Assembly: GCA_014859265.1 (NCBI GenBank)
Contig: JACUUN010000250.1
Location: forward strand, 1,240-65,239
DNA from: Coriobacteriia bacterium
GTDB lineage: Bacteria; Actinomycetota; Coriobacteriia; Anaerosomatales; SLCP01
Length of the DNA: 64,000 nucleotides
Reading direction: 5' to 3'
How positions within the stretch are numbered: the first letter of the stretch is position 1; every line of letters begins with the position of its first letter. Below are positions 46,915 to 57,542 of this stretch, piece after piece. Below the pieces are notes generated by a model. That model did not search any database. It saw only the letters and a program-made list of their open reading frames with translations, and was not told where the DNA came from. The position numbers and the translations under genes are program-made.

Positions 46915-47467
46915 GGCGCGCGCTCCTGTCCTTCGACGGCTCTCTGTCTCTTCTGTACGTCATTCCCATATTGGGCACGATTCTTAGCTCAAACAGCGTC
47001 GAATGGGTAGAATGGTTTCAGTTCGTGTGGACAGTCGTGCACTGCTTGCCTGGAGGATGCGCGACGGAGGTCAGCCGGAAAACTGGTGCTCTTCCACCTG
47101 GGGGTATCGGCACCCATGCATTGCTTCGCAATGTCAACCTCTGAGATCTGCTCGGACCGTGCGTCCGTGGCGCATGCTTGTGTTCCTCTTCAGGTCGCGT
47201 CGAGAGTCTCGGCACCTTCTCGAGGATTCCGCACACCCTCTCAGCACTTCCCTTACTCCCGGCCTGGGCAGCGTCGGCCATCTCGGCCACACACGCTCTG
47301 CTTGCGTATGGGCATATTACAGGACATCCAGGGCGATTCAGTTGTTCACAGGAAGGGGGTCTGAGCTGACGACGCCGTGACCATCGAGGGTACTTGACCG
47401 AAGCGTCGAGCCGCCCCGCGTGGCGAGACGCGCACAATGTCTGGATTCGAACAAGGAGGTGTATGGC

Positions 47468-48634
47468 ATGGCGCATGAGGACCACGACGTAATCTACGAC
47501 CTTCTCGCAGCGAGAGGCGTGTCGCGCCGCGACTTTCTCAAGTACTGCGGATCGATCGCGGCGCTTCTGGGACTGTCCGAGTCCTTCGTACCTCAGATCG
47601 CTGCAGCCGTGGCCGCCGGCGCGAAACTGAAGCCCGCTGTATGGCTTAACGGCGGCGCATGCACGGGGTGCACGGAGTCGATAGCGCAGGTCGATTCGCC
47701 CGACGTGGCGACGATCGTGCTGGATCTGCTCTCGCTCGACTACATCGAGACCCTCTCCATGGCCCAGGGTGAAGACGCGCTTGCCGCGGCCGAGGCGGTA
47801 TTCGAAGAGCCCGGCTACATCCTCATCTATGAGGGTTCCGTCATGCAGGGCTTCGACGGCAACACGCTGCGCATCGGTGGCAGCACAGGTATCGAGGAAC
47901 TCGAGCACGCAGCCCAGAATGCGGCAGCGATCGTCGCTGTAGGGTCGTGTGCGGTCGACGGCGGTTTCGTCAGGGCCAACCCGAACCCCGCCGACGCGAC
48001 CGGCGTGAAGCCCTACCTCGAGAAGGTGGGCATCACCACTCCCGTCGTCAACCTGCCCACCTGCCCCGTTAACCCGGAGTGGGTCGTGGCCATCGTCGTG
48101 GATGTTCTGCTTCTCGGATCTCTCGAGAGCGGCGCCATCCTCGACAAGCTCGACGACTGGGGCCGTCCCAAGTTCATCTTCGGCCAGACGATTCATGACA
48201 ACTGCCCGCGCCGCGGCCACTTCGAGAATGGCCACTTCGTCAACGAATTCGGCACCGAAGAAGAGGCCCTCGGCTACTGCCTGTACAAGGTAGGCTGCAA
48301 GGGCCCGCAGACCTACACGAACTGCCCGATCGTGCGCTGGAACCGTCGCGCCAGTTGGTGCGTCGAGTCCGGAGCACCCTGCATCGGTTGCGGCAGCCTC
48401 AACTGGGTCGACGTCGGAGCTCCGTTCCTTAACCGTCATCGTGACCTGCCTCTCCCCAGCGTCGGCAACACCCAGCCCGGCGTGGTTGCTGGCGTGGTCG
48501 CTGGTGCCACGGCACTGGGTCTCGGCCTCCATGCCCTCGGTATGAAGGCAAGTGGCCGGATGGACGGCGGCGCTCCCTACGAAGACATGAAGAACTACGA
48601 CCGCAAGCGGATGAAGAAGGGAGGCGGTAACTAG
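47468..48634 (+). CDS. hyaA: Hydrogenase small subunit, Tat-exported, C-terminally anchored
   Basis: AAGGAGG RBS; SRRDFLK Tat motif; CTGCTES, GSCA, PTCP, HDNC, CLYKVGCKGP, NCP, WCVESGAPCIGC; C-terminal hydrophobic helix. Confidence 0.96.
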   Translation: MAHEDHDVIYDLLAARGVSRRDFLKYCGSIAALLGLSESFVPQIAAAVAAGAKLKPAVWLNGGACTGCTESIAQVDSPDVATIVLDLLSLDYIETLSMAQGEDALAAAEAVFEEPGYILIYEGSVMQGFDGNTLRIGGSTGIEELEHAAQNAAAIVAVGSCAVDGGFVRANPNPADATGVKPYLEKVGITTPVVNLPTCPVNPEWVVAIVVDVLLLGSLESGAILDKLDDWGRPKFIFGQTIHDNCPRRGHFENGHFVNEFGTEEEALGYCLYKVGCKGPQTYTNCPIVRWNRRASWCVESGAPCIGCGSLNWVDVGAPFLNRHRDLPLPSVGNTQPGVVAGVVAGATALGLGLHALGMKASGRMDGGAPYEDMKNYDRKRMKKGGGN

Positions 48635-50280
48635 TGGCTCGATCAGTTGTCGACCCGTTGACCCGAATCGAAGGTCACCTTCGCGTCGAGGTCGAAGTCA
48701 ATGACGGTGTCGTGACCGACGCCTGGGTGTCCGGCGGGCTGTATCGAGGCATGGAGACCATCCTGCTCGACCGCCGTCCCTCAGACGCGTTCTTTGTCGC
48801 CCAGCGTATCTGCGGTGTGTGCCCAATCTCTCACGGCCACGCCTCAACGATGTCGACAGAGGACGCACTCGGAGTCACGATCCCGAACAACGCGCGTCTC
48901 GTACGCAACCTCATCGAGGCCGCACAGTACATCCACAGCCACATCTTGTGGTTCTACACCCTGGCAGCACTGGACTACGTCGACCCGGTGAAGGCACTGT
49001 CGGCCGATATCGCCGACACCTACGCGCTCGCGCAGGCTGCCGGCACCGGTGTCTCCGACTTCGGTGCCGTCGCCAAACGTCTGCAGGCGTTCGTTGACAA
49101 CGGCCAGCTGTCCATCTTCACCAACGGCTGGTTCGGCCATCCTGCGTACGCCGAGGACATGCCCGCCGAGCTGCACCTCATCGCGGTCGCACACTACCTC
49201 GAGGCGCTCGAGATGCAGGCTGTCGCAGCCGAGATCATCGCAGTCATGGGTGGCAAGTTCCCGCACTTCATGACCTCGATCCCCGGCGGGACCGCCTTCG
49301 TGCCGACCGAGCAGAAGCTCGACGACATCCTGTTCCGCTTCATCAAGCTGCGTGACTGGGTCACGAGCACCATGATTCCGGACACGCTCGCCATCGCACC
49401 GTTCTACGCCGGTGCGCTCGAGTACGGCGGAGGGCACGGGAACTTCCTCGCGTGGGGCGTGTTCAACGACGAGTCCTTCGAGATGACCAGCCGCTACCTG
49501 CCCGGTGGTGCGGTCATGGCGAGCCGGGGGCTCACTGTTGCCGATCCCGACCCTGGCAATATCACCGAGTACGTCGAGCGTTCGTGGTACGACTCGACCA
49601 CGGGCCTCAACCCATCCGTCGGCGAGACGAACGCGAACTTCGACGAGTACAGCACCGATGCTCAGTACTCATGGGTCAAGGCACCCCGCTACGACGGCCA
49701 GCCGATGGAGGCCGGTCCCCTCTCCCGAATGCTCGTCGCGTACCTTCGCGGCGTTCGTCCGGTCCAGGAGATCGTTGACGGCGCGCTCGCTGCCCTTGGC
49801 GCAGCAGGCAAGCCGGAGGTCCTTGTGTCGCTGCTCGGTCGTATCGCAGCCCGCAACCTCGAGACCAAGGTCGTCTGTGACTGGTCGATCGACTGGTTCA
49901 ACGAGCTTGCCGGAGCCATCGCCGGAGGAGATTCTAAGTACTTCGAGCCCCACGACGTGGATGCCGGTCAGGGTGCAGGAATGTGGGAGGCGCCTCGTGG
50001 CGCTCTCGGCCATTTCATCGACATCCAGGGCGGCAAGATTGCCCGCTACCAGGTTGTCACCCCGTCGACATGGGACACCTCGTCTCGTGATGATGAGGGC
50101 GTTCGCGGCCCGATGGAAGAGGCGCTCGTCGGCACTCCGATCATCGATGCCGAGCGTCCGCTCGAGGCGTGCCGGGTCGCACGTAGTTTCGATCCTTGAA
50201 TCGGGTGCGCGGTTCACGTGATTGAACCGAAAACCGGCAAGGAAGCAACCGTCTACACGAAGCCGATGGGGGTGAGGTAG
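48634..50280 (+). CDS. hyaB: [NiFeSe]-hydrogenase large subunit (selenocysteine at TGA 50197-50199)
   Basis: TRIEGH, QRICGVC (L1). The frame continues SFDP-U-IGCAVH-VIEPKTGKEATVYTKPMGVR to TAG 50280, completing L2 and abutting the next ATG at 50281. Confidence 0.96.
50210..50229 (+). promoter_or_regulatory. Bacterial SECIS-like stem-loop
   Basis: CGGTTCA-cgtgat-TGAACCG, 7-bp stem beginning at the 11th nt after the UGA, GU in the loop. Confidence 0.8.
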
Positions 50281-50961
50281 ATGTCGCATCCCGCACACTA
50301 CCGTGAGGCTCATCCGCTGATCTTCGTGTTCACGCACTGGATCAACCTGATCGCGATAGTAGCCCTGGCGTTCTCGGGCTTCTACATCCACTACCCCTTC
50401 TTCGGCGGGTTCATGGGTGTGGCTCGCGGCATGCACTTCTTCTTCATGTACGTACTCCTCATCAACCTAGCCGTGCGCATCGTCGCCACGTTCTTCGTGA
50501 AGTCGGCGACCCGTCTCGGCACGCGTGAGGTCGATACGGACATCAAGAACTGGCTACCGCAGAAGCTCAACCGCCACCAGTTCATCCCGTGGCTCAAGTA
50601 CTACCTGTTCCTGAAGAAGGACCATCCGATCGGGGCGAAGTATGGTGTTCTGCAGAAGATCTCCTACCTCTTCACCATCCCGCTCACGCTTGCGGCTGCT
50701 TACACCGGCTTCTCGATCTATGCGCCATTCATGGATGCGAGCTTCTTCGCTGCAGGTACCGACTGGGTCGGCGGGCCGATGAACATGCGGATCATCCACT
50801 ACTACATCATGTGGGCGTTCATCTTGTTCACGGCGATCCACGCCTATCTGGCGAACGTGGAAGGCATTGCTCCTTCCCGTCTGATCTTCGCGTGGAAGGA
50901 AGAAGAAGGCGTTCAGTTCGACGCAGAGGGTAAGATCGTCGGTGGAGCTGGACACTACTAA
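50281..50961 (+). CDS. hyaC: Ni/Fe-hydrogenase di-heme b-type cytochrome subunit
   Basis: Four TM helices with His ligands (THWIN, GMHFFF, RIIHYY, AIHAYL); YGVLQKISY. Confidence 0.93.
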   Translation: MSHPAHYREAHPLIFVFTHWINLIAIVALAFSGFYIHYPFFGGFMGVARGMHFFFMYVLLINLAVRIVATFFVKSATRLGTREVDTDIKNWLPQKLNRHQFIPWLKYYLFLKKDHPIGAKYGVLQKISYLFTIPLTLAAAYTGFSIYAPFMDASFFAAGTDWVGGPMNMRIIHYYIMWAFILFTAIHAYLANVEGIAPSRLIFAWKEEEGVQFDAEGKIVGGAGHY

Positions 50962-50989: not shown

Positions 50990-51019
50990 CGAGGCCCCGG
51001 ACGCACGTCCGGGGCCTCG
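50990..51019 (+). terminator. Hairpin after the hydrogenase structural genes
   Basis: Perfect 13-bp stem CGAGGCCCCGGAC / GTCCGGGGCCTCG followed by TTT. Confidence 0.7.
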
Positions 51020-51139
51020 TTTGCGCCGCAGAGGGAAGCGGAATGTGAGGCCGCACCTCACCGGGACGGAATGCGGTAGAGTATTCGCCACACATCTCGC
51101 ACGAATCGGCTACATGATGGCGTGCATGAGAGGATACGG

Positions 51140-52468
51140 ATGCTTTCCGAACGCATCATCACTACAGCCCTCCGCATACTGAACAAGCACTACCTGCATC
51201 AGGAACCCATCGGCCTCGAGTCGGTTCCCGGACCTCAGCCCAGTCACGGATACGTCCTCTATGCGCATGTCCCCTTCTGCGAGCGTCTCTGCCTCTACTG
51301 CTCGTTCAACCGGTATCTCTTCCAGGAAGATCGGGCACGCGAGTACTTCAAGCGGCTCCGGCGTGAGATGCAGATGGTCGCAGAGCTCGGGTACGACTTC
51401 CCGTCCCTTTACATCGGAGGCGGAACCCCGACCATTCTGCTCGACGAACTCGCCGAGACGATCGATCTGGCACGCAGTCTCTTCTCGATCGAAGAGGTAT
51501 CGAGCGAGACAAGCCCGAACCACCTGGGCCCGGAGCTCGTCTCCGTGCTCAAAGACCGGGTGCAGCGTCTTTCGGTGGGCATCCAGAGCTTCGACGACAG
51601 GATACTGCGGCAGGTCGACCGGTACGACAAGTACGGGAGCGGCGAGGAGATCTTCGAGCACATCGGTTCGGTAGCCGGAAAGTTCCACTCGCTCAACGTC
51701 GATCTGATCTTCAACTTCCCGTCCCAGACCGAGGAGATGCTGCGACGCGACATCGAACTGTTGAAGGCCTCGGGAGCGAACCAGACGACCTTCTACCCGC
51801 TCATGGCATCGCCCCGAACGCGGGCAGAACTCGCCCGTCAGGTCGGCAACATCGATTTCGCACGGGAGGCGCGATACTACCGCATCATCACCGACAGCCT
51901 GACTCCCGAGTTCCAGCCGACCTCGGCATGGACGTACTCCCGTGACACCGACGCGATGATCGACGAATACATCGTCGACTACGGAGAGTATGTCGGCATC
52001 GGCTCTGGTGCACTCTCATTCCTCGATGGGCGCATCTACGGCAACACCTTCTCACTGCGGGACTACATCGCACGCATCGATGCCGGGCACATGTCGGTGG
52101 CAAAGGCGGGCAAGCCCTACTCGAACACGGCGATGCGACGCTACCGTTTCGTGACCGACCTCTTCGGTCTCAGACTCGACAAGGAGCGGTTCCAGCGCGA
52201 CCTCGGCGCGCCAGTAGAGCGCGGGCTCTGGGCCGAACTGGCCTTCATGCGCGCGGCAGGGGGAATCGCCGGAGACGACGGGCGCTACATCACTCTCACG
52301 GAGAAGGGGCGCTACCTGCTTATGGTCATGATGAGGGAGACACTCGCCTCCTCGAACGACCTCAGAGATCATGCGCGCGACGAACTGCCGCCGGATGAGC
52401 GCATGCTCCTCATCGAGGGAGAGCAGTGCGAGGAGGTCCCTGGCAATGCGCACCGCGCCGCCATGTAG
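51140..52468 (+). CDS. menK: HemN-like class C radical SAM enzyme, probably menaquinone C-methyltransferase MenK
   Basis: ATG 51140 with GAGAGGA RBS; YAHVPFCERLCLYCSF, YIGGGTPT, RLSVGIQSF, NVDLIFNFP, and QTTFYPLM, which matches the MenK/MqnK signature as I recall it. Confidence 0.7.
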   Translation: MLSERIITTALRILNKHYLHQEPIGLESVPGPQPSHGYVLYAHVPFCERLCLYCSFNRYLFQEDRAREYFKRLRREMQMVAELGYDFPSLYIGGGTPTILLDELAETIDLARSLFSIEEVSSETSPNHLGPELVSVLKDRVQRLSVGIQSFDDRILRQVDRYDKYGSGEEIFEHIGSVAGKFHSLNVDLIFNFPSQTEEMLRRDIELLKASGANQTTFYPLMASPRTRAELARQVGNIDFAREARYYRIITDSLTPEFQPTSAWTYSRDTDAMIDEYIVDYGEYVGIGSGALSFLDGRIYGNTFSLRDYIARIDAGHMSVAKAGKPYSNTAMRRYRFVTDLFGLRLDKERFQRDLGAPVERGLWAELAFMRAAGGIAGDDGRYITLTEKGRYLLMVMMRETLASSNDLRDHARDELPPDERMLLIEGEQCEEVPGNAHRAAM

Positions 52469-52528
52469 CTCACACGCCGCGTCCGCTGCAGACCCTCACG
52501 AGCGGTCATCGTACCGCGGAAGGAACAC

Positions 52529-53086
52529 GTGACCACCGTGACCGAACGCATCCTCATACTCGGCATCGGAAACCCTCTCATGACCGACGAGGGCGTGGGC
52601 GTCCGCGTCGCCGAGCTCATCATGGGCGGCTACGAACTGCCCGATAGCATCGAGGTGGTCGATGCCGGCACGATGGGCCTTGGCATCATGAACCTCTTCC
52701 GCGATCGCGACCTGGTCGTCGTGGTCGACGCAGTCGACAACACCGGCCACGAGCCGGGAACCGTAATCCTCCTCACGCCCGAGGAACTCGCTCCTGCCCA
52801 AATAATGCACTCTCTTCACGACATGCGCTTCGTGAACGTGCTCGAGGCAGCAGCCCTCACAGGCATGCAGCCGGAGGCGATCTGTGTCGGCATCCAGGTC
52901 GCCCGCATGGAGCAGTGGGTAATGGAGCTGACGCCCGAGGTCGAGGCGGCACTTCCCGCGGCGGTCGCTGCGGTCCTCGACATCCTCGCCCAGCGCGGTA
53001 TCCGGCTGTTACCTGTCGAGGGTGGATCGATCGACGCCAGCATCATCGAGGCGATACGCACGCGCAGCCGAATGCCCGAGGCCTAG
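52529..53086 (+). CDS. hyaD: Hydrogenase maturation protease
   Basis: ILGIGNPLMTDEGVG, VVDAGT, VVVDAV, SLHD. Confidence 0.95.
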   Translation: MTTVTERILILGIGNPLMTDEGVGVRVAELIMGGYELPDSIEVVDAGTMGLGIMNLFRDRDLVVVVDAVDNTGHEPGTVILLTPEELAPAQIMHSLHDMRFVNVLEAAALTGMQPEAICVGIQVARMEQWVMELTPEVEAALPAAVAAVLDILAQRGIRLLPVEGGSIDASIIEAIRTRSRMPEA

Positions 53087-53106: not shown

Positions 53107-53934
53107 ATGCACGACGAACTTGCGGCAGCCATCGCAGCCGCGGAGGCCGGGGCGCGGGTCGTCCGGGAACGCGCAGACGACATCGGGACGGTGCGCTCGA
53201 AATCCTTCGCAACCGACCTCGTGACCGAGGTCGATATCGCGGCAGGTGTCGCCATTGCGCGCGCACTCCTGGAGCGGGACCCATCGGCACGGCTCGTCGT
53301 CGAAGAAGACGAGGTCTACGATATCGTCGGGGCTATGCGCGGCGATCTCGATGGTGCACAAGTCTGGGTGATCGACCCCGTCGATGGGACGACCTCGTTC
53401 GTCCATGGGTTCCCGGGATACTCGGTGTCGGTAGCACTGCTGCGCGACGGCCATCCGGTTGCCGGAGCGGTCACCGACGTCCCCCGCAGCGTCACGATGA
53501 GCGCCGCCGAGGGTACAGGCACTGCTCTCGACGGCCGTCCCGTCCGCTGTTCTGACGCCACCCGCCTCGATGAGGCGCTCCTCGTGACCGGCTTCCCCTA
53601 CGACCGCGGCGCACCGCTCGACCGTCAGCTTGCCGTGCTGGCGGCGTTCCTGCGCGCACCTGTGCACGGTATCCGGCGCGACGGCTCTGCTGCTCTGGAC
53701 TGCTGCCACATCGCAGCGGGCCGCGCCGACGGTTTTTGGGAGTACGGGCTGCAGCCGTGGGACACCGCGGCCGGAGCGATCCTCTGCCGCGAGGCAGGCG
53801 CCCGGGTGACCGACATCGAAGGGCGGGAGTGGTCGCCAACCGCGAACAGCGGCATCGTCGCTGCAAACCCGGTCCTCCACGAACTCATGCTCGAGCTCGT
53901 CCGGAGAACCAGCGCGGATCTAGCGGATCAGTAA
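53107..53934 (+). CDS. suhB: Inositol monophosphatase family protein
   Basis: DLVTEVD, WVIDPVDGTTSF, GSAALD, LQPWDTAAG. Confidence 0.9.
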   Translation: MHDELAAAIAAAEAGARVVRERADDIGTVRSKSFATDLVTEVDIAAGVAIARALLERDPSARLVVEEDEVYDIVGAMRGDLDGAQVWVIDPVDGTTSFVHGFPGYSVSVALLRDGHPVAGAVTDVPRSVTMSAAEGTGTALDGRPVRCSDATRLDEALLVTGFPYDRGAPLDRQLAVLAAFLRAPVHGIRRDGSAALDCCHIAAGRADGFWEYGLQPWDTAAGAILCREAGARVTDIEGREWSPTANSGIVAANPVLHELMLELVRRTSADLADQ

Positions 53935-55403
53935 TACCGCTTCTGCTCCTCGGAGTCCTCGGCCAACGCTATCCCCCACTCACCGAGAACCTTGCTCACC
54001 GCCCGCTCGCCGCTCTCGACACAGTTTGGCAAGCCGACGCCACGGTACGAGCCACCTGCGAGCGCAAGACCCGGCACCTCTGCGGAGCGCGTCTCGATGG
54101 CCTCCACGCGACCCAGATGGCCCATGGTGTACTGAGGCATGCCCTTCTCCCAGCGGAACACCTTCGTGAACAGCGGGTCCCCCTTAACGCCGAGAACCTG
54201 GCGCAGCTCGGTCAGCACTATCTCCGCGAGGCGGTTATCGGACTCGGCCATGATCGCCTGGTTGTGCGGCCCGCCGACGAACCCGCGCAGGAGTACCTTG
54301 CCCGCCGGTGCGCGCCCGGGCCACTTGGTCGACGAGAGTGTCGCCGCCATGAGGGAGCGGTTCTCTACAAGTGGGCAGAGCACGCCGAACGCGTTCATAT
54401 CGATGCCCACCTCGGACTCCTCGAATGCAAGAGAGACCGTTGCCGAGGAAGAGTGCTCGATGCCAGCGAGCGCGTTGCCGATGACCGGGTCGACAGGGCG
54501 CACCAGCCTCTCCGCCGCCCAGCTCTCGGTCGCCATAATGACCGCGTCGCCATCGATGCGGGTTCCGTCATCAAGGTCCACCGTCCAGCCGTCGACGGTG
54601 CGCGACATCGCAGTCACCGCAACACCGGTTCGCATGCGATCTCGGCCTGCAGCATCGGCCATCGAGTCCGTGAGTCGCTGCATGCCGGTCTCGAACGAGG
54701 TGAAGAACGTCCGGGGCTTGGCGCCGGGCTTTGGCGGGTACTTCTTGCGCATCTCGGCGACCTTCTTGCGCGCGGCGTAGAAGCCCTTGATCATCCCGCC
54801 GTAGGTCTGCTCCATCTCGAGGAGGCGCGGGAAGGTCGCGGCGAGACTCATCTTCGCCGGATCCGATGCGTGCACCCCGCCCACGAGCGGCTCGGCCAGC
54901 CGGTCAAGACACTCGCGTCCCATTCTGCGAACCACGAAACTCTCGAGGGTCTCATCCTCCAGGCCGTCGCCGGTGACCTTCTTGGGCTTGATGAAGAGGT
55001 CCATCCCCATGCGGATCTTGCCGGGCCAGGAGAAGAGCCCCGTGGTGGCGAAGGGCCAGAACTTGGTCGGAGCGAACATCATCACGCCGTCAGGCAGGTC
55101 GTGCAGGCGACCGCGCGACAGGATGTAGGTGCGCTTGCGGGAATCATCGGTGGGCAGCTCCTCGTCGAAGATGCCCATGAGCTTCGCGATGCGGTGCACG
55201 GCAGGCTTCTCGGTGAGGAAGCAATCGGGGCCACCGTCCACGATGAACCCCTCGACCTGCTCGGTAGCGATCTTGCCACCGAGGCGCGGATCTTTCTCTA
55301 CGAGCACGAACTCAACCTCGTGGCCGGCCTCTGCGGACCGGGCGATCTTGAAGGCGGCAGCCAGACCGGCGATTCCGCCTCCGACGATGATGATCCTCCT
55401 CAT
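53928..55403 (-). CDS. hemG: Coproporphyrinogen/protoporphyrinogen oxidase (HemY/CgoX type)
   Basis: IIIVGGGIAGLAAA, RLGGKI, DGGPDCF, GMPQYTMGH, GVGLPNC; clustered with hemH and hemE. Confidence 0.93.
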   Translation of the reverse strand: MRRIIIVGGGIAGLAAAFKIARSAEAGHEVEFVLVEKDPRLGGKIATEQVEGFIVDGGPDCFLTEKPAVHRIAKLMGIFDEELPTDDSRKRTYILSRGRLHDLPDGVMMFAPTKFWPFATTGLFSWPGKIRMGMDLFIKPKKVTGDGLEDETLESFVVRRMGRECLDRLAEPLVGGVHASDPAKMSLAATFPRLLEMEQTYGGMIKGFYAARKKVAEMRKKYPPKPGAKPRTFFTSFETGMQRLTDSMADAAGRDRMRTGVAVTAMSRTVDGWTVDLDDGTRIDGDAVIMATESWAAERLVRPVDPVIGNALAGIEHSSSATVSLAFEESEVGIDMNAFGVLCPLVENRSLMAATLSSTKWPGRAPAGKVLLRGFVGGPHNQAIMAESDNRLAEIVLTELRQVLGVKGDPLFTKVFRWEKGMPQYTMGHLGRVEAIETRSAEVPGLALAGGSYRGVGLPNCVESGERAVSKVLGEWGIALAEDSEEQKRYY

Positions 55404-55432: not shown

Positions 55433-56425
55433 TTACAGCAGAGGCGTTATCGCCTCTGCTATCGAGTCAACCAGCAGCTCGTCCGCATTGGGGACGGCTG
55501 CGCGCGCGAACTCGATGTCGGCGTCCAGCACGCGACCGGCCACCACGACGTCGAGATCGTAGAGCGTCTCCATGTGGTCGGTAGCGAAGCCGACCGGCGC
55601 AACGGCAATCGACCTGTACCCACCCGCAATCGCTGCATCGATGACGTCGTCGAGGTCGGGGCCGAGCCATTCGCAGGGCCGGTTGCCCCTGGACTGGTAT
55701 GCGAAGACCCAGGATTGCGGCTCATCCAGGCAGCCGTAGGTCTTCACGCCGACCAAACGCGGGTCGGTCCCGTCCAACTCAATCCCCTCACCCATTTGGA
55801 GAATCGAGACGATGCGGTCGACCACGCCGCGTAACGCCGGGACGTACGGATCATCCTCGTCTAGGTCCTCGACGGGCAGAGAGTGCGCCGTGAAGACGAG
55901 CAGTGAAGGGGTGTGTTCCTTTATGTCGGTGAGAGCCTCGGCAGCACCGCCAACCAGTAGCCCGCCGAAGCCCGAGAGCGTGTGGAGCGGCGGCGCCTCG
56001 ACGAGCTCCATCTCCTCAAGATCGCTCACCGCCTCATCGAGCGCCTCCCGGTACGCTCCGGTCGCGACTTTGGACTCGAACGGCGAGAGGGAGACCACCA
56101 CCACCCTGCGGACGCCGTACTCGTAGAGGTGGCGCAGCGTCTCCCCGATGAGTGGATCCCAGTAGCGCATTCCGATCACAACGGGGACCTCGTGAGCACC
56201 CTCGGCCAGCTTCGCCTCCAGCTTGGTCGCGAGTTCTCCAGCGATGGCGAGAAGCGGGGACGACCCGCCGATCGTGAGGTAGCGTCGCTGCACCTGCTGG
56301 ACGAGCTCCTCGGACGGCTCGTAGCCCATCAGGTTGCGCATGAACGGGCCGACGGAATCGAGGCAGTCCGGCCCGCCGAAACCTACGAGCATGACCGCAG
56401 TAAGTGGCTGTCCGTTCCCGCTCAT
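55433..56425 (-). CDS. hemH: Ferrochelatase (probably coproporphyrin type)
   Basis: GFGGP, RYLTIGGSSPL, GMRYWDP, FTAHSLP, YQS...WLGP, GFATDHMETLYDLD. Confidence 0.93.
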   Translation of the reverse strand: MSGNGQPLTAVMLVGFGGPDCLDSVGPFMRNLMGYEPSEELVQQVQRRYLTIGGSSPLLAIAGELATKLEAKLAEGAHEVPVVIGMRYWDPLIGETLRHLYEYGVRRVVVVSLSPFESKVATGAYREALDEAVSDLEEMELVEAPPLHTLSGFGGLLVGGAAEALTDIKEHTPSLLVFTAHSLPVEDLDEDDPYVPALRGVVDRIVSILQMGEGIELDGTDPRLVGVKTYGCLDEPQSWVFAYQSRGNRPCEWLGPDLDDVIDAAIAGGYRSIAVAPVGFATDHMETLYDLDVVVAGRVLDADIEFARAAVPNADELLVDSIAEAITPLL

Positions 56426-57477
56426 GCCGACACCCCACTCCGGATGCGCGTGGAGTGCTCGCGTACCGAACGGACGAGCGCCTTCGCGTGCTCGGGGTCG
56501 GTCTCCTTGTGGATACCGTGGCCGAGGTTGAAGATGTGGCCCGGCCGGGTTCCGACCTTCTCGAGGATGTCCCGCGCCGCCGCGTCGATGACCTCGACGG
56601 GTGCAAAGAGCATCATCGGGTCGAGGTTGCCCTGAATCGCGAAGTCAGGACCTATCCACTCCACCGCGTCGGCGATGTCGACGCGCCAATCGAGGCCGAT
56701 GACGTCACCACCCGCGCTCTTGACCTTGGAGAGCATCGCCGTTGCGTTGTTGGCGAAGTTGATTACCGGCACGCCGACCTTGCTGACCTCTGCGATCAGA
56801 CGCGTCGTATGAGGCAGCACGGAGCGCTCGTAGTCGACGGGTGAGAGGAAGCCCACCCACGAGTCGAACACCTGCACCGCCTGCGCACCCGCCTCAATCT
56901 GCGCCAGAAGGTACTCGATGACTGTGTCCGTCGTGACCTGCATCAGCCGGTCCCAGGCCCCAGGATCGGACCACATGAGGCTTTTGCACTTAATGTAGGC
57001 GCGGGTCGAGCCGCCCTCGATCATGTACGAGGCGAGCGTGAACGGCGCCCCGGCGAAACCGATGAGGGGCACCTTGTCGCGCAATTCGTGGCGCAGCTGG
57101 CGGATGGCGTCCATCACGTAGCCGGTGTCGGTAACCGCATCAGACACGCGCAGCTTCTTCACGTCTGAGAGGTCACGCACCCGGTTGTGGATGACCGGGC
57201 CCTCGCCCTTGGCGAAAGAGAGCTCCAGGCCCATTCCTTCGAGTGGAAGCAGGATGTCCGCGAAGAGAATGGCGGCATCCACGCCGATGAGGTCAACGGG
57301 TTGCAGAGTGACCTCCACGGCAAGTTCGGGGCGCTTGCACATCTCGAGGAAGTCGTGATCCTTGCGGATGGCGCGATACTCTGGCATATAGCGCCCGGCC
57401 TGCCGCATCATCCAAATCGGGGTGCGCTCTGTGGGCTCGCATCTGCACGCCCGGAGGAACAGGTCGTTGAAGGCCAT
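56422..57477 (-). CDS. hemE: Uroporphyrinogen decarboxylase
   Basis: ATG 57477; PIWMMRQAGRYMPEY, DAAILFADIL, IGFAGAPFTLASY, QGNLDP, IFNLGHGI. Confidence 0.97.
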   Translation of the reverse strand: MAFNDLFLRACRCEPTERTPIWMMRQAGRYMPEYRAIRKDHDFLEMCKRPELAVEVTLQPVDLIGVDAAILFADILLPLEGMGLELSFAKGEGPVIHNRVRDLSDVKKLRVSDAVTDTGYVMDAIRQLRHELRDKVPLIGFAGAPFTLASYMIEGGSTRAYIKCKSLMWSDPGAWDRLMQVTTDTVIEYLLAQIEAGAQAVQVFDSWVGFLSPVDYERSVLPHTTRLIAEVSKVGVPVINFANNATAMLSKVKSAGGDVIGLDWRVDIADAVEWIGPDFAIQGNLDPMMLFAPVEVIDAAARDILEKVGTRPGHIFNLGHGIHKETDPEHAKALVRSVREHSTRIRSGVSA

Positions 57478-57542
57478 CGTGGAATTCCCTTTCATTGTGC
57501 CGGATGAAGGAAACAAAACCGCGTGTAGTCTACACCAATACG

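Follow-up and report, generated by a model that had tools for sequence, protein, structure and literature searches.

The window analysed here is a stretch of 64,000 nucleotides from the Coriobacteriia genome assembly GCA_014859265.1 (contig JACUUN010000250.1, positions 1,240 to 65,239). It contains a hydrogenase gene cluster in which a radical S-adenosylmethionine (SAM) gene stands between hyaC, encoding the quinone-reducing cytochrome b, and hyaD, encoding the maturation protease. To judge from its sequence, the product of this gene, P0001 (51140..52468, + strand, 442 aa), is a class C radical SAM methyltransferase of the MqnK/MenK/MenK2 menaquinone methyltransferase family. Within this family it falls into clade W, a separate and uncharacterised third lineage of environmental Coriobacteriia that the trees place beside the canonical orthologue. 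The explanation we favour, with some confidence, is that P0001 methylates the ring of menaquinone or methylmenaquinone and is transcribed together with hyaD from a promoter of its own.

Assignment of P0001 to the MqnK/MenK/MenK2 family

The reading frame starts with an ATG at 51140, with GAGAGGA just upstream (an alternative GTG lies at 51122), and its product matches the Pfam Radical_SAM domain. Scored against NF006385 (PRK08629), the model for MqnK, MenK and MenK2, P0001 reaches 501.4 bits at a cut-off of 355; the second-best family model yields 147 bits and stays under its own cut-off. We took the six motifs of the family from Wilkens et al. 2021 in the form in which Table 2 of PMC10320005 gives them. 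All six are present, namely LYAHVPFCERLCLYCSF (residues 40-56), YFKRLRRE (69-76), GYDFPSLYIGGGT (84-96), RLSVGIQSFDDRIL (143-156), QTTFYPLM (215-222) and NTFSLRDY (302-309), and each of them is kept in 18-20 of 20 clade W members. YFxxxRxE and QxTxYPLx are found in at most 0.1% of HemW proteins (PMC10320005).

P0001 shares the HemN-like radical SAM fold with HemW and HemN/CgdH, but scores below the cut-offs of both. The HemW model TIGR00539 gives 119.5 bits (cut-off 205.4) and the HNxxYW motif is absent, whereas the true HemW of the host genome, encoded on contig C117 and 34% identical to P0001, reaches 216.6 bits and has the motif. The HemN/CgdH model TIGR00538 gives 104 bits instead of the 325 needed and covers the N-terminal radical SAM core only. 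The model of the haem-degrading ChuW/HutW methyltransferases (TIGR04107) gives 141 bits at a cut-off of 400, and the HemZ model stays under its cut-off as well. An earlier note on this DNA, which had proposed a MenK-like enzyme, named clustering with HemN or HemW as the outcome that would speak against its proposal; with the HemW, HemN, ChuW and HemZ models all below cut-off, no such grouping was found.

A look-up of source names meant to separate MenK from MenK2 gave no other names than "coproporphyrinogen III oxidase family protein" or "HemW", and two close homologues are labelled "menaquinone C8-methyltransferase" by JGI, an annotation by similarity only. The only solved relatives found by sequence were HemN (1OLT) and the class C methylase NocN (9P2U).

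Clade W and its paralogues

The host genome (2.34 Mb in 255 contigs, 64% G+C), which the names of the closest homologues place in the Anaerosomatales/OPB41 branch of the Coriobacteriia, encodes a second protein above the NF006385 cut-off, with 503.8 bits, on contig C227 (locus L001:684-2036), where the gene lies between purD and purE. P0001 is 57% identical to this purD-linked paralogue and 54-57% identical to MenK-type paralogues in general. The two paralogues of Adlercreutzia, which we take to differ only in the ring position they methylate, are 60% identical to one another. In all, 72 loci show the purD-linked position, including the host's own L001, L063/L137 of A. equolifaciens, L088, L090 and L091. 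It is common to two environmental Coriobacteriia clades and to the QTTFYPLM-type gene of gut Eggerthellaceae, among them Adlercreutzia equolifaciens, Slackia, Gordonibacter, Raoultibacter and Ellagibacter. Because environmental and gut clades share this position, the purD-linked gene is, on sequence and synteny, identified as the orthologue that is ancestral in Coriobacteriia and corresponds to MenK of the Adlercreutzia type. Both the tree and the conserved position place P0001 outside MenK/MqnK sensu stricto. We note that a canonical menaquinone methyltransferase paralogue is found inside a purine operon from subsurface to gut Coriobacteriia, without obvious rationale.

Clade W has a branch support of 100/99 and is recovered in 100% of the bootstrap trees computed without the HemW outgroup. 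When the tree is rooted with the HemW-like proteins of the host, the root falls inside W, which we take to be a long-branch artefact. That all copies from Coriobacteriia form a single clade is compatible with the approximately unbiased test (p-AU 0.51). W and the purD-linked gene occur together in every genome checked, i.e., in G000, G002, G005, G006, G014 and about 10 further metagenome-assembled genomes.

A second paralogue beside a MenK-type gene also calls MenK2 to mind. MenK2 is said to be a menaquinone C7-methyltransferase (thus reportedly Hein et al. 2018 and Wilkens et al. 2021), and the Wilkens abstract reportedly has MenK and MenK2 characterised in A. equolifaciens and Collinsella tanakaei. 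Each of these two species carries a second paralogue with QTTFSPLY instead of QTTFYPLM. The corresponding clade is supported with 100/99 and nested within the Eggerthellaceae MenK-type sequences. Both are also species with characterised MenK and MenK2 according to PMC10114718, and the QTTFSPLY clade is presumed to be MenK2. P0001 resembles this type in being a second paralogue, in the substitution F402L and in an altered position 339. It differs from the presumed MenK2 in keeping QTTFYPLM and in not being nested in the Eggerthellaceae MenK-type sequences; QxTxYPLx is found in 20 of 20 W sequences and in 0 of 12 presumed MenK2 sequences. From these trees and motifs, W appears to have arisen independently of the presumed MenK2 clade.

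MqnK of Wolinella succinogenes and MenK of Adlercreutzia equolifaciens and Shewanella oneidensis are menaquinone C8-methyltransferases (Hein et al. 2017, as cited in PMC10114718). P0001 has in common with them the NF006385 family, the six motifs including QxTxYPLx and a menaquinone-making host, and its identity to family members in a Helicobacter metagenome-assembled genome and in an Adlercreutzia equolifaciens genome is 46-54%. Unlike them, it belongs to a clade of its own, carries six specific substitutions, sits in a hydrogenase operon and has beside it, in the same genome, the purD-linked positional orthologue of the Adlercreutzia-type gene. The "MenK-like" of the earlier note therefore holds for family membership, but P0001 does not itself correspond to the characterised MenK, whose orthologue is the purD-linked paralogue.

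Six positions are fixed in W and unlike all purD-linked copies: P60L, N125S, an inserted G324, M339T, F376I and F402L. Of these, N125S falls within ETNPNH, a motif of the SAM site. Eight positions of this kind were found in the presumed MenK2 clade (S211C, Y219S, M222Y, V227T, L231M, V235L, F342Y and F402L). F402L is thus fixed in both groups, with F kept in 94-100% of the other members, and position 339 is changed in both. Y219 and M222 of P0001 align with Tyr227 and Arg230 of NocN, two residues that are positioned at the carbon that reacts and stack against SAM and the substrate (PMC12871812). W retains Y219/M222 like other QxTxYPLx members, and the QTTFSPLY clade does not. This retention argues for a MenK/MqnK-like binding mode, to the extent that an alignment can tell. 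F402L, which W has in common with the presumed MenK2 clade, and the other paralogue's presence beside W in every genome checked point to a distinct step.

Conserved linkage to the hydrogenase operon

The hydrogenase genes precede the radical SAM gene on the same strand. The small subunit of the [NiFe(Se)] hydrogenase (47420..48634, +) matches the Pfam domains NiFe_hyd_SSU_C and Oxidored_q6 as well as TIGR00391 (307 bits) and carries a twin-arginine translocation (Tat) signal domain. The large subunit follows (48634..50199, +; PF00374, 528 bits), and then the HyaC-like b-type cytochrome, the quinone-reducing membrane anchor (50281..50961, +; PF01292, 76 bits; TIGR02125, 97 bits, below the cut-off of 121.5). 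Downstream of the radical SAM gene lies a HyaD/HybD-type maturation endopeptidase of the HycI/HyaD family (52529..53086, +; PF01750, 98 bits; TIGR00072, 129.5 bits), which starts with a GTG. The earlier note had described a class C radical SAM gene with QTTFYPLM between the hydrogenase cytochrome b gene and hyaD, 60 nt before the latter, and both the arrangement of the hya genes and the distance, taken from the radical SAM stop codon (52468) to the GTG of hyaD at 52529, are as described.

The gene neighbourhoods of 251 loci were scored by tblastn, with the proteins of the window as queries. hyaC lies directly upstream of the W gene in 23 of the 37 distinct W loci that have upstream sequence, and hyaD is nearly always directly downstream. 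Two more W loci on incomplete contigs show the pair of radical SAM gene and hyaD. A hydrogenase gene within 4.5 kb was found at none of the 144 family loci outside W. The placement is thus conserved and not accidental, and the adjacency to a quinone-reducing cytochrome b, restricted to W, speaks for a role of P0001 in quinone methylation. Other Coriobacteriia have an uninterrupted hyaA-hyaB-hyaC-hyaD series, among them G005 and G014, whose W gene is located elsewhere. Consequently, "inserted", the word of the earlier note for the gene in the hya cluster, is a fair description.

A probable separate transcription unit

The spacer between hyaC and the radical SAM gene is 178 nt long; taken as a 191-nt segment, it folds better than shuffled sequences (z = -3.3). 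It contains the strong hairpin that had been noted upstream of the gene: a perfect, G+C-rich stem of 13 bp with a 4-nt loop at 50990-51019, immediately followed by TTT, so that the terminator-like element as a whole spans 50990..51022 (+). Across hydrogenase-linked loci the spacer varies from 98 to 336 nt. A hairpin with a stem of 11-17 bp and -27 to -40 kcal/mol occurs 10-49 nt downstream of the hyaC stop codon in 22 of 23 related loci. The stem sequences vary among these loci, and several have T-rich tails. A simple terminator scan of the window did not call the hairpin, as its T-run is short.

The spacers of the window, L004 and L006, which represent the three closest genomes, have a single conserved block, ATGCGGTAGAGT(A/T)T, the remainder having diverged. 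In the window the block reads ATGCGGTAGAGTAT (51071..51084, +) and includes a -10-like TAGAGT at 51077-51082, 58 nt upstream of the start codon, which makes it a candidate promoter of a unit formed by the radical SAM gene and hyaD. The 60-nt gap between these two genes shows no structure beyond chance (z = 0.47), and the two reading frames share 3-4 nt in the closest relatives; hyaD is probably co-transcribed with the radical SAM gene. A gene of the inositol-monophosphatase family (53107..53934, +; PF00459, 194 bits) starts 20 nt downstream of hyaD. It holds the same position after hyaD in most hydrogenase-linked relatives and may belong to the same unit. The likely order is hyaABC, terminator, promoter, radical SAM gene and hyaD, possibly extended by the phosphatase-family gene.

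A search of the leader of the radical SAM gene against Rfam gave no significant riboswitch or other known RNA. The leader also contains a palindrome, GTGAGG-N5-CCTCAC (51044-51060), which is not conserved in L004 or L006.

Menaquinone supply and electron acceptors

The host makes menaquinone by the futalosine route, to judge from its genes: MqnC (473 bits), a fused MqnE (499 bits), a protein of the MqnA/D family (258 bits), an MqnP-like UbiA protein (299 bits) and UbiE/MenG (239 bits) are encoded, and MenD has no match above cut-off in the genome. Given this route, "MqnK-like" is a better label for P0001 than "MenK-like". With UbiE/MenG present, we rejected the idea that P0001 replaces the C2 methyltransferase.

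Some features of the menaquinone genes deserve mention in their own right. MqnE (L170:8908-11142, G000:C183) has 744 aa in total and is fused to an unassigned N-terminal extension of approximately 350 aa. The gene of a B12-binding radical SAM protein (G000:C226, L171:4684-6474; TIGR04190, 'Ta0216' family, 617 bits at a cut-off of 500) overlaps the start of UbiE/MenG, and an aminofutalosine-deaminase-like gene follows. As a class B radical SAM methylase in a menaquinone operon, it is a further candidate for a quinone ring methylase. In the closest relative, G002, whose W gene is 88% identical, the sole UbiA-family match is a MenA-type prenyltransferase (L175; 323 bits at a cut-off of 264), where the host has the MqnP-like protein (L174). 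Either close relatives use different menaquinone pathways, or one of the bins may be mixed.

In Wolinella, H2 oxidation is tied to methylmenaquinone, and 8-methylmenaquinone is needed for H2-driven polysulfide respiration. A search for terminal reductases in the host genome found no clear polysulfide reductase. Its three molybdopterin enzymes are all formate-dehydrogenase-like, and there is one DsrO/DsrP-like pair. Two of the formate-dehydrogenase-like genes, C150:2457-3731 and C217:449-2161, have one in-frame TGA each.

The two cultured Anaerosomatales use H2 or formate, Anaerosoma tenue with sulfur or thiosulfate and Parvivirga hydrogeniphila with Fe(III), and both carry this hydrogenase of group 1i with cytochrome b and protease; a radical SAM gene is not mentioned by the authors (PMC9686372). 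Group 1i, or "Coriobacteria-type", hydrogenases are thought to pass electrons via cytochrome b and quinone to unresolved acceptors (PMC9686372). The link to a low-potential acceptor, which had been drawn before from the window, fits these H2-using relatives that respire sulfur, thiosulfate or Fe(III). That the product is 8-methylmenaquinone and tunes the acceptor of the hydrogenase is the corresponding extrapolation.

Proposed function and alternatives

We infer the substrate, product and physiological coupling of P0001 from the observed family, separate clade, placement and menaquinone pathway. A catalytically intact class C methyltransferase would act on the naphthoquinone ring of futalosine-derived menaquinone or methylmenaquinone. 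By analogy with the family, the [4Fe-4S] cluster (C47, C51 and C54) would bind one SAM, whose cleavage would give a 5'-deoxyadenosyl radical. A methylene radical would then add to an sp2 carbon of the ring and, with the loss of S-adenosylhomocysteine, leave a methyl group behind. W accompanies the purD-linked orthologue in every genome examined, and in most of its members the gene would have come to lie between the hyaC and hyaD genes of the membrane-bound hydrogenase. With the terminator-like hairpin ending hyaABC and the -10-like box presumably driving a separate unit of radical SAM gene and hyaD, a methylated quinone of lower potential would be produced together with hydrogenase maturation. 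As to the position, C8 is our tentative assignment, and C7, or a second methylation giving dimethylmenaquinone, is the more doubtful one. In a variant of this reading, W would have evolved independently into a second ring methylase, which makes dimethylmenaquinone in concert with the purD-linked enzyme.

Several points weigh against a quinone methyltransferase. No clade W member has been characterised, nor do the names in our trees link any sequence to an assayed enzyme. The host already has a canonical MenK-type paralogue, which leaves the need for a second enzyme unexplained. In neither of the cultured Anaerosomatales were respiratory quinones detected in formate-grown cells (PMC9686372), and CgdH2 of Campylobacter jejuni, a member of the MqnK/MenK/MenK2 family, was reported as a haem chaperone (PMC10320005). 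Furthermore, the conserved neighbours of W are related to haem. In the window, a hemY-type oxidase (53928-55403, -), a ferrochelatase (55433-56425, -) and a uroporphyrinogen decarboxylase (56422-57516, -), all assigned by Pfam and NCBIfam, converge on the hydrogenase and radical SAM genes from the opposite strand; at 15 of the listed loci with hydrogenase linkage, hemY-hemH-hemE are no more than 4.5 kb away. Among the 14 W loci that are not linked to a hydrogenase, seven show a UbiA-family gene directly after the W gene, in L103 even overlapping it. This neighbour is haem O synthase-like (CtaB/CyoE) and occurs in seven genomes (L103:7320-8282, L173:1396-2307 of G014, L013, L113, L184, L185 and L204). 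Finally, among 14 genomes tested, ferrochelatase homologues were found in four of the five that bear W. Eight gut genomes lacking W had none, and one more gut genome gave a weak hit.

The haem O synthase-like neighbour was at first sight a candidate for a menaquinone prenyltransferase. We rejected this because TIGR01473 gives 214 bits in G014 (cut-off 210) and 204 bits in L103, as against approximately 50 bits for MqnP models. An MqnP-like gene is found elsewhere in the genomes with this pair. The host genome itself has no haem O synthase-like gene by tblastn.

These surroundings would be accounted for if clade W were a chaperone or insertase for haem b that derives from the methyltransferase family and resembles CgdH2. 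It would take haem from the haem pathway and pass it to membrane haem proteins, with HyaC as its client and haem O synthase in the sister lineage. Both conserved contexts, after a dihaem cytochrome b or before a haem O synthase-like gene, would then make sense, the nearby hemY-hemH-hemE genes and the distribution of ferrochelatase would fit, and co-transcription with the maturation protease HyaD would make the W gene a second maturation gene. CgdH2 has the same six motifs, binds haem with a Kd of ~5 uM and takes haem from ferrochelatase in vitro (PMC10320005). As far as PMC10320005 says, it is not linked to a hydrogenase; what it has in common with P0001 are the family motifs, the haem-related surroundings and the LYxH histidine. 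The histidines linked to its haem binding are H45 and H133 in C. jejuni numbering (PMC10320005). P0001 has the histidine of LYxH as H43 (LYAH), and H128 (SPNH) is a possible equivalent of the second residue; both are near-invariant in the whole family and hence do not discriminate. We nevertheless consider haem handling unlikely, although it is the main rival to quinone methylation. The methyltransferase motifs, including those absent from HemW, are strictly conserved across W, and a passive chaperone would not need them; a canonical HemW is, moreover, already encoded in the host. In G005 and G014, where the W gene has moved away, the haem cluster stays near the hydrogenase, so that its adjacency to W is in part a by-product of a linkage between hydrogenase and haem genes. 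The correlation of W with ferrochelatase (HemH) is confounded by phylogeny, as all genomes with W belong to environmental lineages. C. jejuni makes methylmenaquinone, and CgdH2 is, to our knowledge, its only family member and thus the only candidate enzyme for this product, so that haem binding there may be incidental.

Divergence within W may also be read as a change of substrate: a class C methyltransferase could act on haem or on a different prenylated aromatic compound. The W-specific changes at otherwise invariant positions (those listed above from P60L to F402L) suggest biochemical divergence, W is accompanied by the canonical paralogue in every genome checked, and part of the clade adjoins a haem O synthase-like prenyltransferase gene. 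Yet six clade-specific positions in 442 residues are few, the identity to MenK-type paralogues is still 54-57%, the residues aligned with NocN contacts are unchanged, and ChuW/HutW scores far below its cut-off. We hold another substrate to be improbable. Still more remote, and hardly to be expected, is an oxygen-independent coproporphyrinogen or coproheme decarboxylase. The thought is prompted by the adjoining hemE, hemH and hemY, by the database name 'coproporphyrinogen III oxidase family' and by the apparent gaps in the haem pathway: ChdC (PF06778) was found in none of seven Coriobacteriia genomes searched, with positive controls, and no host protein reaches the HemN cut-off. The HemN model, however, gives P0001 only 104 of the required 325 bits, and its motifs are those of methyltransferases. 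In addition, AhbD is a known anaerobic substitute for ChdC (PMC13564367), and the host has a protein of this type (491 bits at a cut-off of 500, by far the best match to haem b synthase) together with AhbC (697 bits, cut-off 650). With these two, no haem step is missing; since a true HemW is present as well, a missing haem decarboxylase was rejected as a role for P0001.

The genes for AhbC and the AhbD-like protein (C75:1874-3304 and C165:39079-40356) thus stand alongside hemE, hemH and a hemY-type oxidase in a genome where ChdC was not found. This suggests two haem routes, or a coproporphyrin route that is finished by AhbD.

Implications

Behind annotations such as "MenK-like" or "coproporphyrinogen oxidase family" stand at least three lineages in the Coriobacteriia that are separable by function. 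One of them, a paralogue fixed in the group 1i hydrogenase operon of at least 23 genomes, provides a concrete handle on the electron chain of these organisms. If haem handling were its function, the disputed CgdH2 result would be extended to a second phylum and to a defined client protein, and with the W gene a hydrogenase operon would for the first time have a gene dedicated to cytochrome-b maturation. If P0001 makes methyl- or dimethylmenaquinone, as we favour, H2 uptake would be tied to a quinone pool of lowered potential in subsurface Coriobacteriia that reduce sulfur or iron, and a methylated quinone would be the compound to seek in the isolates in which quinones were not detected.

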